A stretch of DNA of 64,000 nucleotides, taken from Escherichia phage vB_EcoM_MM02. The stretch is taken from sequence record MK373784.1. One strand, written 5' to 3'. Below, in pieces: positions 44,790-64,000 of this stretch. Each line of letters opens with the position of its first letter. Positions within the stretch are counted from its first letter, which is position 1. Both the position numbers and the translations under genes were made by a program. Below the pieces are notes generated by a model that ran no database searches, was not told the DNA's origin, and saw nothing but the letters and a program-made list of their open reading frames with translations.

Positions 44790-45260
44790 TTAATCATGTT
44801 TCCACACCCCATCGCTATTTGACCAAAGTCGCTGATTATCTGATCCTCGCCAAAGCTTTTTAGTCGGAAGATTTTTCTCATACTTCCCATCAATAATAAC
44901 ATCAACATATTTAAGCATTTCTAGTTGTTTAATATCTTCAAACTTATATCCTGTCCACAACCAAATGCTTTTATTGGGATAAAGATTTTTTACTGTTTGA
45001 GCAATGCGATGAATAACATCTCGGTTATCAGGATAGAGAGGGTCTCCTCCGGTTATAGTTAATCCTTCTATATAATCATTATTCAAACATTCAATCAATT
45101 GTTCTAGTGTCTCTCCAGTGAATGGAGTACCATTTCTAGCATTCCATGTTGATTTATTATAACACCCTTCACATTTATGCAAACAACCTGTAACGAAAAG
45201 AACGACCCTGCATCCAGGGCCATTCACAAAATCGCAAGGATAAAATCTATCATAATTCAT
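44790..45260 (-). CDS. nrdG: anaerobic ribonucleotide reductase activating protein NrdG (radical SAM)
   Basis: 156 aa; CxxxCxxC in VTGCLHKCEGCYN. Confidence 0.85.
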   Translation of the reverse strand: MNYDRFYPCDFVNGPGCRVVLFVTGCLHKCEGCYNKSTWNARNGTPFTGETLEQLIECLNNDYIEGLTITGGDPLYPDNRDVIHRIAQTVKNLYPNKSIWLWTGYKFEDIKQLEMLKYVDVIIDGKYEKNLPTKKLWRGSDNQRLWSNSDGVWKHD

Positions 45261-47074
45261 TGGTGTTTAACCCTATGCATGATTTCTTTATTTTTACCGA
45301 GATTAAATCCGCGCTCGTTCGGATTTCCCAAATAGCCGCATGTTCTTCTTATAGTGTTCATCTTTTTAGGATCAGTTTCTCCACAAACTGAACAAACAAA
45401 TCCGTTTTCAGTAGGAGTCATCTCATGGGTACTTCCACATGTAAAACATTTATCTACTGGCATATTAACACCAAAATAATCTAAATGTTGTGCAGCATAA
45501 TCCCAGACAGCCTCGAGTCCCTTTAAATTGTTTTTCATATCAGGAAGTTCAACATAAGAAATGTGACCACCTGTCGCAATGAAATGATATGGCGCTTCAC
45601 GAGAAATCTTTTCAAACGGAGTAATATTTTCTTCTACTGAAACATGGAAACTATTAGTGTACCAGCCTTTATCGGTAACATCCTTTACATTTCCATATTT
45701 TTCTGTATCGAGTTTACAGAAGCGATAACAAAGGTTTTCAGCAGGAGTAGAATACAAACTAAAAGCAAATCCAGTTCTTTCGGACCACTGTTTAAGATGA
45801 GCATTCATTTTAGTTAAAATTTCTTGCCCAATATCACGACCGACAAGAATATTCAATTCGTGAATACCAATGTATCCTAAAGACACTGAACTTCTACCGT
45901 TTTTAAATAACTCAATTATGTCGTCATCAGGTTTAAGACGAACCCCGAATGCACCTTCTTGGTAAAGAATAGGAGCAACAGTAGCTTTAACTCCTTTTAA
46001 GGAACTAATTCTACACATCAAAGCTTCAAAACATAAATCCATTCGTTCATTGAATAATTCAACAAATTTCTGTTCGTTAAATTGCGTTCCAATATAAGAA
46101 TCTAACGCGATGCGAGGAAGATTCAATGTTACAACACCAAGATTATTGCGACCATCAAGAATTTCATTACCGGTCGAATCTTTCCATACGCTCAAGAAAC
46201 TACGGCAGCCCATTGGAGAAACAGGAACTGAAGAACCGGTAATAGCTTTATTATTCTTAACCGAAATAATGTCAGGATACATTCTTTTGCTTGCACATTC
46301 TAACGCAAGTTGTTTAATATCATAGTTCGGATCATCTTTATAAAGATTAACACCTTCTTCAACAAACATAACAAGTTTAGGAAAAATAGGAGTTATTCCA
46401 TCACGACCAAGACCTTTAATGCGGTTTTTAAGAATTGCCTTCTGAATCATTCGTTCGGTCCAGTCAGTTCCCGTACCAAATGTAATTGTTACAAAAGGCG
46501 TTTGTCCGTTTGAACTAAAGAGAGTATTTACTTCATATTCATAAGCTTGGAATGCATCGTATACATCTTTTTCTGTTTTGGATTGAGCATAATTCAACGC
46601 ATCAGCGATTTGCCATTTTTCTGCATCCTCAATATGTTTAGCGTATGTGCGTTTAACATAAGGAGAAAGAACTTTATCTACATTCGCAAATGTAGTTCCG
46701 CCATACTGGTGTGAAGCAACTTGTGCGGTAATTTGTGCCATAATTGCAGTAGCAACGCCAATAGATTTAGGCGTTTCAATTTGAGCATTGCCTAATTTAA
46801 ATCCATTCTCAAGCATTCCTTTTAAATCTACTAAACAGCAATTAGTAAAAGGCAATGATATACTGTAATCTAAATCATGAAAATGAATTAATCCAACATT
46901 ATGGGCATTTACAATATGACTTGGAAGAATACGACAAGCGATATGTTTAGAAACAATACCGGCCATTAAATCTCTTTTTGTTGGAAAGACACGAGAATCT
47001 TTGTTGGCGTTTTCGGTATTTAATTCTTTATCTTTATTTGAAATAAAATTTAAAACATCTTTCTCTAAAGACAT
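45257..47074 (-). CDS. nrdD: anaerobic ribonucleoside-triphosphate reductase NrdD (glycyl radical enzyme)
   Basis: 605 aa; C-terminal Zn site CFTCGS...CSVCG and glycyl-radical motif RRTCGYLG; uninterrupted. Confidence 0.9.
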   Translation of the reverse strand: MSLEKDVLNFISNKDKELNTENANKDSRVFPTKRDLMAGIVSKHIACRILPSHIVNAHNVGLIHFHDLDYSISLPFTNCCLVDLKGMLENGFKLGNAQIETPKSIGVATAIMAQITAQVASHQYGGTTFANVDKVLSPYVKRTYAKHIEDAEKWQIADALNYAQSKTEKDVYDAFQAYEYEVNTLFSSNGQTPFVTITFGTGTDWTERMIQKAILKNRIKGLGRDGITPIFPKLVMFVEEGVNLYKDDPNYDIKQLALECASKRMYPDIISVKNNKAITGSSVPVSPMGCRSFLSVWKDSTGNEILDGRNNLGVVTLNLPRIALDSYIGTQFNEQKFVELFNERMDLCFEALMCRISSLKGVKATVAPILYQEGAFGVRLKPDDDIIELFKNGRSSVSLGYIGIHELNILVGRDIGQEILTKMNAHLKQWSERTGFAFSLYSTPAENLCYRFCKLDTEKYGNVKDVTDKGWYTNSFHVSVEENITPFEKISREAPYHFIATGGHISYVELPDMKNNLKGLEAVWDYAAQHLDYFGVNMPVDKCFTCGSTHEMTPTENGFVCSVCGETDPKKMNTIRRTCGYLGNPNERGFNLGKNKEIMHRVKHQ

Positions 47075-47886
47075 AATTCTAATTTATCCTTTTGAAATTC
47101 TTCGTCTAAATATGGGTTCCAACCCATTTTAAACCTTTTGATGAAATTATCAATTCTAAATTTCGGTAAGTTTAAATCCGCAAAAATAGATGATTTACTT
47201 TTAAAATCTGGACCTAAATAATCATATAAAATTTCTGCGTATTTTAACCATAATATACAAGTACCGGATTTAATTGCGTTCGGAGTTTTCCAAGGTTTTA
47301 CACCATACATCGGATTTCCACTTCCTTTATGCCTGATAGAAGATGAAATTCCAATTTTAATTTTAGCTTCCTTTGTATGCGAAAATCCACGATGCGGATT
47401 TTCTTTCCAGTATTTTTTAGAAGCTTCTGATATTTTCTTTCTGGCTAAATTAGTATGATGCTTTCCATAAAATCCATTATTTTTGCCTTTATTACGATTT
47501 CTTTTAATCATGGTTATTGATTGCTTTTCTCTAGTTTCTTTAGAAGGAGAAATACCATATGTCGTAAATTTGCCATCAGCATATGCTAAATTAAAATACT
47601 CTTTATTCCATACATCTTTTTCTATATTCTTTTGAAATTCAGCTTCAATGCTAGTTATTTGTTCATCTCCGACTAATTGAAAATATAATATTTCAACTTT
47701 CGGCGTTTCTTTCAATAAGGCTTTTTGAAATTCGGAAGATGACGAAGACGAATAATAAAATTTACCATTTTTATCAATAATATTCGTTCCATCAAAAGTG
47801 CAATTGGTTTTACTTCCAATGTAATAATATGGTGGGGTTTTAGCATTAATTCTATTAATAAATGATAGTTTATATACTACATTCAT
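47065..47886 (-). mobile_element. free-standing GIY-YIG homing endonuclease gene (Seg/I-TevI-like) with NUMOD3 repeats
   Basis: 273 aa; GIY-YIG core VYKLSF...PPYYYIGSKTN; NUMOD3-like repeats GKHHTNLARKKISEA, SHTKEAKIKIG; overlaps nrdD start by 10 nt. Confidence 0.7.
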
Positions 47887-61159: not shown

Positions 61160-61469
61160 CTAGACGGTCCACCATAGAATTGCATGCTGCCTTATCTTTA
61201 GGTTCCGCCACCGAGCATTCTAATATTTGCCATTTTTTATAGTATCTTTTAATTAAGGTAGACGCCTTGAACCTACTAGACGCCCCATCTTTTTCTCCGT
61301 CTTTATACGCGTATAACAATTTTTGTGAAAAATCTACTTTACACTCTTGACTTTTACCACAGTAATCAGACGCCGTTCTGTTTGTATACTCCGTTACATC
61401 AGTATATGTAGTATTAGCAAAAGCGTTAAATGAAACCAAGCCAACTATTAAAGCCAACATTTTGGTCAT
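61122..61469 (-). CDS. small secreted Cys-containing protein
   Basis: 115 aa; signal peptide MTKMLALIVGLVSFNAFA. Confidence 0.35.
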   Translation of the reverse strand: MTKMLALIVGLVSFNAFANTTYTDVTEYTNRTASDYCGKSQECKVDFSQKLLYAYKDGEKDGASSRFKASTLIKRYYKKWQILECSVAEPKDKAACNSMVDRLVDSYNRGLAASD

Positions 61470-62008
61470 TCTTTTATTTCCAGTAGTTTATTTGATTTAA
61501 GGTAATTAGCCTTTTCTAGGACTTCAGAAGCATATTTACTTCCAGCACTTGTCTTCCATCCCGCATTATATGAGGATATAGCTTTTCTTATATCCCCGTT
61601 ATGTATATTTAACCAATAAGAAAATTCGATATAAGCCCATCTGGCTGAATTAGACCGCTTAGATAGCATTTTCTTAATTTGGGCATCAGTCATATTATAA
61701 CCAAGTTGGTTAATTCTTGCCCTCATCGTTGGTAGATAATTTTGGAACATTCCATACGCATGGTGACCTTTCTTATCTTTAAGATTAATACCGGCTGATG
61801 ATTCCTGCCATAGTATTGCGGCCATTATGTATCCAAGTCCTTTCTTATGCATATTTTCATGCGTTTTAAATTTTCCATCCTTAGAAAACTGTTCCCCAAA
61901 CTGATAAGCATAATTCAAGTTATCGAGTTGGACATTACTAAAAGTATGCTCGGAGCTATGTGCTGATAATGAAAGAGCAAATAGACCAGCGAGTAGTGCT
62001 TTTCTCAT
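61466..62008 (-). CDS. secreted lytic-transglycosylase-like (SLT domain) protein
   Basis: 180 aa; signal peptide; SLT motifs WQESSAG (E-S), GMFQ, YNAGW. Confidence 0.5.
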   Translation of the reverse strand: MRKALLAGLFALSLSAHSSEHTFSNVQLDNLNYAYQFGEQFSKDGKFKTHENMHKKGLGYIMAAILWQESSAGINLKDKKGHHAYGMFQNYLPTMRARINQLGYNMTDAQIKKMLSKRSNSARWAYIEFSYWLNIHNGDIRKAISSYNAGWKTSAGSKYASEVLEKANYLKSNKLLEIKE

Positions 62009-62016
62009 GTTTACCT

Positions 62017-62475
62017 CTAGATTTTAATCACTGCTTTAGAAGCTTTTCCTGGTAGTCGTTTATTGTTAATAATAGCCATTCTGCATTGAAGAGTCTTCAT
62101 TTTGAATGCCGGATTTTCGCGACAAACTGTAAGTCCTAACCAAAGATTTCCGTCAGTTATTTCTAAACGGCCTGGACGATACTCGACACCTTCGACAAAA
62201 TCTTCATCAACATCTGGACGTGCCGGCATTGATAAAAATTCTGCAACTTCTTTAACGTGATTTTTTACTTTATGAAATAATTCAAAAACGTAATTCTCAT
62301 CTATTTCTCTCTGGATGGCACGATCTAAGAGATGTTGAGAATACTTGATATGAAAGCCTGGTAGTCCAAGAGACTTTGCAGCATCTTTTATACCGACATT
62401 TATTTTGCGGAACTCCGTTTCAAAGATTCGACGGAGTTTATTACGGCGGATAAAAACTTCCGAATTGATAGTCAT
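62017..62475 (-). CDS. regB: RegB sequence-specific endoribonuclease
   Basis: MTINSEVFIRRNKLRR...KYSQHLLDRAIQREIDENYVFELFHKVK... matches my memory of T4 RegB; start trimmed to ATG preceded by GAGGAGA. Confidence 0.85.
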   Translation of the reverse strand: MTINSEVFIRRNKLRRIFETEFRKINVGIKDAAKSLGLPGFHIKYSQHLLDRAIQREIDENYVFELFHKVKNHVKEVAEFLSMPARPDVDEDFVEGVEYRPGRLEITDGNLWLGLTVCRENPAFKMKTLQCRMAIINNKRLPGKASKAVIKI

Positions 62476-62481
62476 TTTGAT

Positions 62482-62532
62482 TTCTCCTCTAGTTGACAAG
62501 TCTATAGTAACACAACTAGAGGAGAAGTAAAC
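62482..62532 (-). promoter_or_regulatory. early promoter upstream of regB with -10 in the loop of a perfect 13-bp inverted repeat that includes the regB RBS
   Basis: Arms tctcctctagttg / caactagaggaga; -10 (rc of atagta) at about 62504-62509; -35 gtaaac at about 62527-62532. Confidence 0.5.
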
Positions 62533-62831
62533 TACTCTTTGAAAGGAATTAACTTTTTAACTGCTTTAGATACTTCGTCACGAACCTGATGGAAGTTCTT
62601 GAGCTGTTCAAGGCGTTGTTCGTAATACGCAATCTCATCTTCTTCAAGACAATCGTCAGCGTCTTCTTTCAGATATGCCTTGTACTCATTAAAGAGGGCC
62701 CATAGGCGGTTCTCAAAGTCATCAAGGCTTTGAATTTTCTTGTGCTTCAGAACAAGGCCAAAAGGATTGCTTTCAGTTATGCGTCTAGATGCTTCATAAT
62801 GAGTTCCAAAGCCTGATAGGATTTGAGCCAT
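62532..62831 (-). CDS. hypothetical protein
   Basis: 99-aa ORF. Confidence 0.35.
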
Positions 62832-63265
62832 TAGTATTTTTCCTCAGGTCGAAATACTGCACGACATGCCCACATGCTGGCTTCTTTTAGATGTTGCTTA
62901 GCATACTTAAGAGCCTGCACTGCATCCATATCTTCTTTGGTTTGTTGCTCTGTTTCATTTTCTTTCAAGATATATGCTTCTTCAATCAGAGCATCAAACA
63001 ACAATCCAAGACGGACTTCTGCATCTTTAATAGCGTTCACTTTACCGATTTTATCATCGGTATGCGGCTTGTAGCCTTTGATGTCTTCAATCGACATAAG
63101 GAATTTCCTCATCTGTGGCAAGGTCATATTCGACCAATTGGATAGGCTCATTAATACCATATCCACGTACAGTGATATCAGTTGTCGGATAGTTTCCAGT
63201 AATATCACCCATTCTAAATGATTCAATGAATGATTGCTCGCCTGAGCAACTAAACCAGGCGGCAA
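62831..63265 (-). CDS. hypothetical protein
   Basis: 144-aa ORF. Confidence 0.35.
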
Positions 63266-63310
63266 AACATTTTAAAACATCTTCAGACCCTTCTATAAAC
63301 AATTTAGCCA

Positions 63311-63673
63311 TTATAGACTCTCAGTAAAGGTGCGAGCGATAACGTCACGCTGCTGTTCCGGAGTTAGAGAGTTAAAGCGAACTGCATAACCGGATACACG
63401 GATGGTCAGCTGCGGATATTTTTCCGGATGCTTAACTGCATCTTCTAGAGTTTCACGACGCAGAACGTTAACGTTCAGATGTTGTCCACCTTCAATTTTA
63501 ACTTTAGGTTGATGTTCAATTTCAATTTCACGGGCATTCAAACCGTAGAAAATTTCTGGGTCTACAATAGCGTCTTCTTTAAAAGTCTTAGAGACAATAA
63601 TCCGGGCTTGAGTACCGTCTTCAAAATAAATAGTGCCTTTGTGTGTGCCTTCAAGAATTTGATATGCTTTCAT
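63311..63673 (-). CDS. GrcA/YfiD-like autonomous glycyl-radical cofactor protein
   Basis: 120 aa; C-terminal ...[60 protein letters not shown] carries the RVSGY glycyl-radical motif and matches my memory of E. coli GrcA; 3' half has host-like GC and codon usage. Confidence 0.7.
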
Positions 63674-63679
63674 ATAACC

Positions 63680-63988
63680 TCAATTAGAAAATAAATTTAT
63701 CCAAGTTTTTTCTTTAATCAAAAATGGGTCGGAATTAAACGCCATTAAACTTTGAGTGATTAATCCCTTAAATGGCCCATCAATAAATTCCATTTTGAAA
63801 TGCGGAATACTAGTCATCAACCGTGCATTAGGAGCAGTACAAAGAACCTGCTGCCCTGCGAACGGACCTTTAGTCAAACGATATCGTTTAGGTTTAAAAT
63901 GGTAAATCTCGTAATTTTCTACAAGGGCCCTTTTATTGCATACTGGGCTGTTATAACAATATTCAAAAACTTCAATAGTGGTCATCAT
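63680..63988 (-). CDS. hypothetical protein
   Basis: 102-aa ORF. Confidence 0.35.
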   Translation of the reverse strand: MMTTIEVFEYCYNSPVCNKRALVENYEIYHFKPKRYRLTKGPFAGQQVLCTAPNARLMTSIPHFKMEFIDGPFKGLITQSLMAFNSDPFLIKEKTWINLFSN

Positions 63989-64000
63989 TGCATTCCAATC

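Follow-up and report, generated by a model that had tools for sequence, protein, structure and literature searches.

Two proteins, YfiD (GrcA) from Escherichia coli and, from bacteriophage T4, Y06I (the product of vs.6), are the sole validated spare parts for pyruvate formate-lyase (PFL) (PMC8683613); both are activated by the PFL-activating enzyme and restore PFL that has been cleaved by oxygen (Wagner et al. 2001, pmid 11444864, as cited in PMC8683613). In YfiD, residues 61–127 adopt the fold of PFL residues 693–759, carry the radical glycine and make up the domain that inserts into PFL; residues 1–60 are disordered by nuclear magnetic resonance, yet matter for binding of cleaved PFL and for efficient radical installation (PMC8683613). 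As for gene history, psbA of cyanophages is a described case in which patchy GC content derives from intragenic recombination between host and phage, as summarized in PMC3900582, which refers to the original work. Here we describe the orthologue of T4 vs.6, a phage grcA gene, in a stretch of 64,000 nucleotides (nt) from Escherichia phage vB_EcoM_MM02 (MK373784.1; "the window"), a T4-like coliphage that belongs to the genus Mosigvirus. The gene very probably encodes a phage autonomous glycyl-radical cofactor and is built as a three-part mosaic by host-to-phage replacement, which took place independently in coliphages and in Klebsiella Jiaodaviruses and, in the coliphages, after the split between the phage genera. 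Its parts are as follows (aa, amino acids; ORF, open reading frame):

63311..63673, minus strand: vs.6 (phage grcA) ORF, ATG start, 120 aa, TAA stop, orthologue of T4 vs.6 (Y06I)
63494..63673, minus strand: phage-lineage 5′ half, codons 1–60, GC 35%, a diverged counterpart of the GrcA N-terminus
63321..63493, minus strand: tract of very probable host origin, 173 nt, gene nt 181–353, codons 61 to 118, encoding the folded glycyl-radical domain
63311..63320, minus strand: phage-type tail of 10 nt, comprising the last base of codon 118, AGT, CTA and TAA, against GAA AGC CTG TAA in E. coli
63386..63400, minus strand: RVSGY glycyl-radical motif, residues 92–96, read from the sequence and aligning with the glycyl-radical loops of GrcA and PFL
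63389..63391, minus strand: radical glycine codon GGT (Gly95), read from the sequence

The initial annotation, made from the letters of the window alone, described a 120-aa GrcA-like ORF with an RVSGY motif, and this description is borne out by matches to Pfam Gly_radical (PF01228; E = 2e-18, 67.3 bits where the cut-off is 22.2) and to E. coli YfiD/GrcA (Protein Data Bank entry 6owr; E = 2e-42). HMMER aligns phage residues 21–120 to GrcA 27–127, phmmer aligns phage residues 57–120 to PFL 696–759 (E = 3e-26), and Foldseek places the C-terminal part at 76% identity to PFL and 100% identity to the structured part of YfiD. Phage residues 61–120 are identical to E. coli GrcA 68–127; the exact C-terminal match claimed at first is therefore right in identity and covers 60 residues, not about 57. 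The N-terminal half, in contrast, is only distantly similar to GrcA and is seven residues shorter. The protein (120 aa, ~14 kDa) stands alone, without the catalytic barrel of glycyl-radical enzymes, among unrelated small phage genes. Its radical loop, small size and duplication of the PFL C-terminus mark it as a predicted GrcA/YfiD-type spare part (TIGR04365, IPR011140), with an equivalog score below cut-off that we take up below. Relative to T4 vs.6, which occupies the same slot between vs.7 and vs.5, is likewise 120 codons long, is annotated as autonomous glycyl radical cofactor GrcA and shows the same three-part mosaic, 113/120 residues are identical (94%); six of the seven aa changes are N-terminal and one lies in the tract (R73 in the window, H in T4).

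Over codons 61 to stop (183 nt) the gene differs from E. coli grcA at 9/183 positions, all of them synonymous. Codons 66–102 contain a single difference, whereas 5′ of codon 61 most codons differ at one to three positions, and similarity to E. coli grcA drops abruptly upstream of that codon. A host-like 3′ half had been placed at 63311–63480; the host-like part is real, and its extent is from 63493 down to 63321. This 173-nt tract matches grcA, as a rule at 96.5% (167/173), in 5,426/5,426 complete genomes of E. coli, while a megablast search of window positions 1–63310 against the same 5,426 genomes returned zero matches, and the tract is thus the only host-like DNA in the 63 kb screened. A short host-identical stretch within an otherwise host-unlike genome resembles a chimeric assembly or contamination with host DNA. 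We regard such an artefact as a negligible prospect, given that ~500 phage records that are independent of one another, the reference genomes of T4 and RB69 among them, have the same in-frame mosaic with the same boundaries, and that the window allele has synonymous changes of its own, lacking in every one of the 5,426 E. coli genomes but one.

To place the donor, we compared the 3′ 183 nt with grcA of 80 bacterial species together with Klebsiella and Salmonella alleles. The nearest bacteria are E. coli (174 identical positions), E. albertii (167) and Citrobacter (161–165), with all others at ≤159. Many bacteria encode the same 61 residues and yet E. coli is nearest; the signal is therefore carried by synonymous sites, and the bacterium to which it points is the host of the phage itself. 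A two-breakpoint maximum chi-square analysis with a Klebsiella-phage allele as phage parent and E. coli grcA as host parent delimits a host-type segment at gene nt 186–356 (chi-square 45.6, 0/300 permutations as high), inside which 23/24 informative sites of the window allele are host-type compared with 18/87 outside. The T4 gene gives 56.0, again with 0/300 permutations as high. The nucleotide alignment to host grcA called for by the initial annotation therefore yields 174/183 in the 3′ part and significant breakpoints, and the tract is flanked on both sides by phage-lineage sequence.

The direction of transfer follows from the bacterial genes. Synonymous divergence (dS) between E. coli and other bacteria in the two gene halves is 0.14/0.17 for E. 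albertii, 0.49/0.48 for C. youngae and 0.65/0.65 for E. cloacae, with lower 3′ dS in Citrobacter Cu233 and in the more distant Klebsiella sp. and Yersinia. Bacterial grcA tracks species relatedness, and it is the phage gene whose halves are discordant. That the two halves of bacterial grcA diverge alike among the closer species argues for grcA of the host, inherited vertically, as the donor and for the phage copy as the recipient. With supported breakpoints, an own-host match at synonymous sites and a host-to-phage direction, vs.6 qualifies, at the level of sequence comparison, as a host–phage intragenic recombinant.

The six changes that separate the window tract from E. coli are GGT>GGA, CAC>CAT, CTG>CTA (twice), CGC>CGT and CGT>CGC, four of them GC-to-AT; three are common to the closest relatives and three are private. 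We considered and discarded two bacterial sources for these variants: as a different host allele they find no counterpart in the 5,426 E. coli genomes apart from one strain that has one of the sites, and as another species' allele they have no joint match among the 80 bacterial species. They are therefore treated as phage-lineage mutations. Separately, CTG to CTA accounts for 3/9 of the differences between window and E. coli over 63311–63493; neither host nor phage uses CTA often (8% of Leu codons in the phage), and these changes may simply be G-to-A drift.

Base composition agrees with the boundary in part. Total GC falls from 47.0% in the 3′ part to 35.0% in the 5′ half. The GC shift reported at first survives window statistics: a GC content of 47% is reached by only 0.23% of the 183-nt windows that the 64 kb contain (0.57% of non-overlapping ones), and a jump of this size between adjacent windows occurs at <1% of positions. 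An AT-rich, phage-like 5′ half encoding a diverged GrcA N-terminus was likewise correctly described, with 35% GC and weak similarity to grcA. The shift resides mainly in codon positions 1 and 2 (0.53 versus 0.40). GC at third codon positions (GC3) is 0.37 and ordinary, with 19% of 60-codon segments of the long phage ORFs at least as high. Enterobacterial codon choice, a further element of the initial annotation, is right in kind (Pro 3/3 CCG; Leu three CTG and three CTA; Arg CGT/CGC) and statistically modest, as the fit of the tract to phage codon usage falls in the lowest 6.7% of segments. We accordingly set composition aside as proof of foreign origin, total GC being significant and GC3 and codon fit weak, and used direct identity instead. 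The same codons could be read as convergent adaptation of a highly expressed segment to host translational preference without recombination, in keeping with the use of CTG, CCG and CGT/CGC and with the low phage-codon fit. That explanation is contradicted by the sharp breakpoints and has very little left to commend it: GC3 is ordinary for the phage, no E. coli-like DNA is found elsewhere in the 63 kb, and adaptation would neither halt at codon 61 and turn phage-type in the last 10 nt nor mirror host-allele choices at the 24 sites at which E. coli and Klebsiella differ.

The mosaic is not private to the window. About 500 coliphage records, T4 and RB69 among them, match E. coli grcA at 95–99%, and the coliphage alleles are identical to E. 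coli at 174–180/183 positions, to E. albertii at 167–174 and to every other bacterium compared at fewer. We compared 14 alleles, seven Mosigvirus-type and seven Tequatrovirus-type (T4 included). Differences fixed between the two types number 11 in the 5′ 180 nt, 0 in the 173-nt tract and one in the 10-nt tail (Fisher test of 5′ half versus tract, p = 0.00085; third codon positions alone, p = 0.013), and dS between the types is 0.35–0.47 in the 5′ half versus 0.02–0.24 in the 3′ half. From this contrast in fixed differences and dS it follows that the tract entered, or was last refreshed, after the Mosigvirus/Tequatrovirus split. In the 5′ half, nonsynonymous divergence (dN) between types is 0.043–0.062 and dN/dS about 0.1–0.2, which indicates that this phage half is under purifying selection.

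The E. coli sequence is the hub of tract variation. Two alleles, L084 (phiE142) and L086, one in each genus, are identical to E. coli over tract positions 1–173, and T4 has one difference (R73H). Tract dS to E. coli is 0.045–0.07 for T4, L084 and L086 and 0.23 for the window, compared with 0.17 between E. albertii and E. coli. Of the initial claim of a recent host recombination, the host-derived 3′ part therefore stands; the event is neither especially recent nor private, given the ~500 records and a dS of 0.23. Judged by these distances, the window allele appears to be one of the more decayed, older-looking copies and not an especially recent one, with six synonymous tract changes where T4 has none. 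Sporadic tract variants across alleles comprise 12 GC-to-AT and seven AT-to-GC changes, a bias consistent with decay toward the AT-rich phage composition.

In an alternative history, an ancestor of the T4-like phages captured grcA once, long ago, and very strong purifying selection has since acted on the radical domain, with no later exchange with the host. The whole phage gene, N-terminal half included, is indeed homologous to grcA (residues 21–120 versus 27–127), and the radical domain is extremely conserved as a protein in bacteria and phages. Selection on the protein, however, leaves synonymous sites free: Pseudotevenvirus alleles (L094–096, L165 and L166) encode 61/61 aa as in E. coli and are identical to any bacterium at only 153–154/183 nt, and protein-level selection therefore fails to explain the identity of the tract. 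An ancient capture is further contradicted by the tract dS of T4, L084 and L086 to E. coli, which lies below that between E. coli and E. albertii, by the 0 versus 11 fixed differences between phage genera, and by Klebsiella-type synonymous states in Klebsiella phages (see below); we judge it highly improbable.

The 10-nt tail differs from E. coli GAA AGC CTG in every phage allele examined. It reads GAG AGT CTA in 7/7 Mosigvirus-type alleles and mostly GAG AGT TTG in Tequatrovirus-type alleles, with T4 (GAA AGT TTG) and L086 (GAG AGT CTG) as exceptions; Pseudotevenvirus alleles have GAG AGT CTA (ATA in one record) and Klebsiella Jiaodavirus alleles GAG GCA CTA. At the other edge, one Tequatrovirus allele, that of Escherichia phage vB_EcoM_JE01 (L175, 101–457), carries a 6-nt in-frame deletion of two codons just 5′ of the tract boundary, ...EIEIQPTVKIEGG..., and the linker before the conserved domain thus tolerates a change in length.

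Phages of another host genus provide an independent view of the same process. Klebsiella phages KPV15 (L109) and vB_VIPKPNOM02 (L164) both have a phage-type 5′ half; the Klebsiella-phage gene is identical to the window gene over its first 26 nt and 78% identical overall. As host reference we used grcA of K. variicola, taken via the protein database. E. coli and Klebsiella grcA differ at 24/183 positions of the 3′ part, the encoded tracts differing at E77L and K81E, and over these 183 nt the two Klebsiella phages match K. variicola at 170–172/183 positions, whereas KPV15 matches E. coli at 154. The maximum chi-square segment in the Klebsiella phage gene spans gene nt 186–342 (55.0; 24/27 host-type sites inside versus 12/89 outside; 0/300 permutations as high), and its left boundary is common to the Klebsiella-phage and coliphage segments. 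Searching all phages with the Klebsiella tract retrieves 62 records at 95–99%; the best 25 of the 62 are nearly all Klebsiella phages, at 96–96.5% over positions 1–173. A Klebsiella-type tract in Klebsiella phages therefore means that host-to-phage replacement took place independently at least twice, the donor in each case coming from the genus that the phage infects. There is no host tracking in the Pseudotevenvirus phages of Klebsiella and Citrobacter.

Three further records deserve mention here. Compared with other Jiaodaviruses, the KPV15 gene lacks 1 nt in its 5′ half (L109, about 1620–1630), so that an ORF of 80 aa remains, which is still GrcA in RefSeq; the record contains either an error of sequencing or a pseudogene. 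Salmonella phage PSE-D1 (ON550260.1) carries a Klebsiella-type tract at 96.5%; if the tract preserves a record of past hosts, Klebsiella may be the host of this phage in nature. A candidate case of Yersinia tracking was excluded: a 19-kb IMG/VR contig (L111) holds at 1291–1797 a full-length grcA of bacterial type (MITGIQITK...), closest to Yersinia (167/183), and is probably host chromosome in a viral collection, not a phage gene.

How the tract was acquired can be outlined from these comparisons. T4-type phages have highly active recombination and break the host chromosome into fragments, and the tract would be copied from chromosomal grcA by homologous replacement (gene conversion) during infection, with the 173 nt of near-identity as a plausible recombination substrate. 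The left boundary shared by the two groups of phages falls where universally conserved sequence begins, just inside the folded domain of YfiD (61–127), and 5′ of it phage and host may be too divergent for recombination. The copied tract of the window allele would then have gained its six synonymous changes. A stronger version, which we hold tentatively and somewhat short of probable, is that host grcA serves as a standing template that is re-copied repeatedly in infections, a marker rescue from degraded host DNA by which a virulent phage evolves in concert with one host gene. If so, the spare part would stay matched to the PFL system of the local host and be reset upon a change of host genus, and T4-like genomes with no other DNA in common with their hosts would bear a signature of the host genus 173 nt long.

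Several observations weigh against this reading or narrow it. One conversion followed by phage-to-phage spread among the coliphage genera would yield the same pattern, and recurrent conversion is not proven. Within the Mosigvirus clade, non-fixed polymorphic sites are equally frequent in tract and 5′ half (19 versus 20); homogenization is therefore not continuous at that time scale. Salmonella and Enterobacter tracts, searched against phages, find their best matches at 91.8% and 87%, both in E. coli phages, with no tract specific to either genus. The Klebsiella reference is K. variicola, whose cluster representative has a rare P-to-S variant. Finally, on protein identity, the NCBIfam equivalog model for GrcA (TIGR04365) scores 159.1 bits, under its cut-off of 170, where E. 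coli GrcA scores 233.9; the shortfall of 11 bits arises because the N-terminal half has diverged, the match beginning at residue 18.

The polymorphism counts also fit a history of one host-to-phage replacement per host genus with subsequent phage–phage spread in co-infections and no continuing conversion. T-even phages recombine freely, the flanks of the tract are clade-specific in both genera, and sporadic variants at tract positions 39 and 81 recur in both clades, all as such spread would have it. Against this, both crossovers would be needed inside the same 173 nt every time, and alleles identical to E. coli are present in both genera (L084 and L086), with E. coli at the hub of the variants. 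We therefore consider spread without further conversion rather unlikely, less so than the other alternatives discussed here.

With regard to function, host PFL rescue, proposed in the initial annotation, is supported through the biochemistry of the T4 orthologue Y06I (PMC8683613) and is therefore not new. By orthology, from 94% identity to the T4 protein and an identical radical domain, the window protein would act in the same manner: the host PFL-activating enzyme would install a radical on Gly95 after infection, the C-terminal domain would insert into host PFL cleaved by oxygen at Gly734, and the restored activity would sustain acetyl-CoA and formate output in micro-oxic infection, as shown for the T4 protein. 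Formate could then feed the phage anaerobic ribonucleotide reductase, NrdD, which the window encodes together with NrdG:

44790..45260, minus strand: NrdG, with Fer4_12 and Radical_SAM matches
45257..47074, minus strand: NrdD, anaerobic ribonucleotide reductase, adjacent to NrdG

The NrdD coordinates were correct from the outset. NrdD is itself a glycyl-radical enzyme truncated by oxygen, and rescue of NrdD by vs.6, replacing its oxygen-cleaved C-terminus, had also been put forward; a grcA homologue ~400 nt downstream of nrdD in jumbo phage L110 would suit it. This proposal strikes us as very unlikely. BLASTP of the vs.6 protein against the window NrdD detects no similarity (E = 9.1), and the vs.6 radical domain does not resemble the NrdD C-terminal end (...IRRTCGYLGNPNERGF...). 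Because there is no such similarity and the radical domain copies the C-terminal end of PFL (76% identical to PFL 696–759, 100% to host GrcA), direct rescue is unsupported; moreover, what conversion would keep the domain matched to is the PFL system of the host and no protein of the phage. Class III ribonucleotide reductases draw both reducing equivalents from formate (PMC4493059). As PFL makes formate and these reductases use it, protecting PFL would protect anaerobic dNTP synthesis, and the indirect link, in which PFL-made formate feeds NrdD, seems more plausible than direct rescue. Guarding PFL to guard the formate supply of the anaerobic ribonucleotide reductase is our suggested reason that a lytic phage keeps the gene.

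Three jumbo-phage contigs of ~345–357 kb (L110, 50–1857; L107; L108) have a 124-aa grcA homologue ~400 nt downstream of nrdD on the same strand, with one small ORF between; this adjacency is explained equally by formate supply and fits either proposal. In the window, a 273-aa ORF at 47065–47886 (minus strand) abuts the nrdD start and contains a NUMOD3 motif (7.5e-07) typical of homing endonucleases, and may be a mobile endonuclease gene beside nrdD/nrdG.

For the N-terminal half we obtained an AlphaFold2 model of the window protein aligned with 38 bacterial GrcAs. Residues 1–55 (63509–63673) are predicted at pLDDT 85–90 as a small four-strand β unit and residues 56–70 at low confidence. The confident β unit conflicts with the disorder reported for YfiD 1–60. 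A Foldseek search with this unit found no significant neighbor, the KOW-like matches being insignificant (E > 0.1).

These features set vs.6 beside, and apart from, the described systems. It shares with E. coli GrcA/YfiD (6owr; TIGR04365) the entire radical domain and 96.5% of the DNA over 173 nt, and departs from it in its shorter, distantly similar N-terminal half and low equivalog score. Like cyanophage psbA, as that gene is outlined in PMC3900582, it is an auxiliary metabolic gene of a T4-like phage, a mosaic of phage- and host-type sequence with a GC-richer host patch and later AT-biased drift. It differs from psbA in that the host patch corresponds to one structural domain and begins at one and the same left boundary for both host genera, that host identity reaches 100% over 173 nt in some phages, and that it belongs to a classical coliphage whose other 63 kb screened is host-unlike. 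GrcA homologues of T5-like phages, Pseudotevenvirus and jumbo phages are likewise small stand-alone Gly_radical proteins with a common core, without host tracking at the nucleotide level (122–154/183 to the best bacterial grcA); they represent the unconverted or a long-ameliorated state. In the papers covered by a full-text literature search, no description of the nucleotide mosaic in grcA/vs.6 was found, though it may have been mentioned before; while the function is already known, the host-tracking, domain-sized conversion seems to be undescribed. With this gene, host-to-virulent-phage gene conversion can be approached by experiment in a simple case and in the phage system that has been studied best, and the tract may mark, in short form, the host genus of T4-like phages. 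As a matter of annotation, many of these phage homologues are misnamed formate acetyltransferase or 2-ketobutyrate formate-lyase. The 127-aa homologue of T5-like phages (T5 AY543070, 27665–27843; NC_106721; MZ501108) is also labeled acetyltransferase-related protein; these are small GrcA-like proteins, not 760-aa enzymes.

The immediate genomic setting of vs.6 is that of T4. The closest match to the gene is in Escherichia phage vB_EcoM_SCS57 (98.9%), with RB69-type phages near, and the order vs.7-vs.6-vs.5-vs.4 is as in T4, the neighbors being counterparts of T4 vs.7, vs.5, vs.4, regB and vs.1. The protein matches PHROG 1209 over residues 1–120 (E = 6e-63) and sits in the conserved slot of the vs.8-vs.7-vs.6-vs.5-vs.4 cluster, as expected of a member of this orthologue group. 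The vs.6 stop and vs.5 start codons overlap (TAATG), and the translation signal upstream of vs.6 is the following:

63678..63681, minus strand: GAGG ribosome-binding site, 4 nt 5′ of the ATG, overlapping the vs.7 stop codon

Within 62500..64000 the coding strand of vs.6 contains neither a sigma-70-like promoter nor a terminator, and the gene is predicted to have no promoter of its own. Two genes downstream, the vs.4 counterpart (62834–63097, minus strand) has a Pfam Acb2/Tad1 hairpin domain (PF24729, 4.4e-18) and is a protein of the anti-CBASS/Thoeris cyclic-nucleotide sponge type. The RegB endoribonuclease lies at 62017–62499 (minus strand; PF10715, 6.8e-69), and the vs.1 position at 61466–62008 (minus strand) is occupied by a 180-aa secreted-looking protein without a Pfam match. 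The order of regB and vs.1 in the window differs from that in T4, where vs.1 comes first and then regB.

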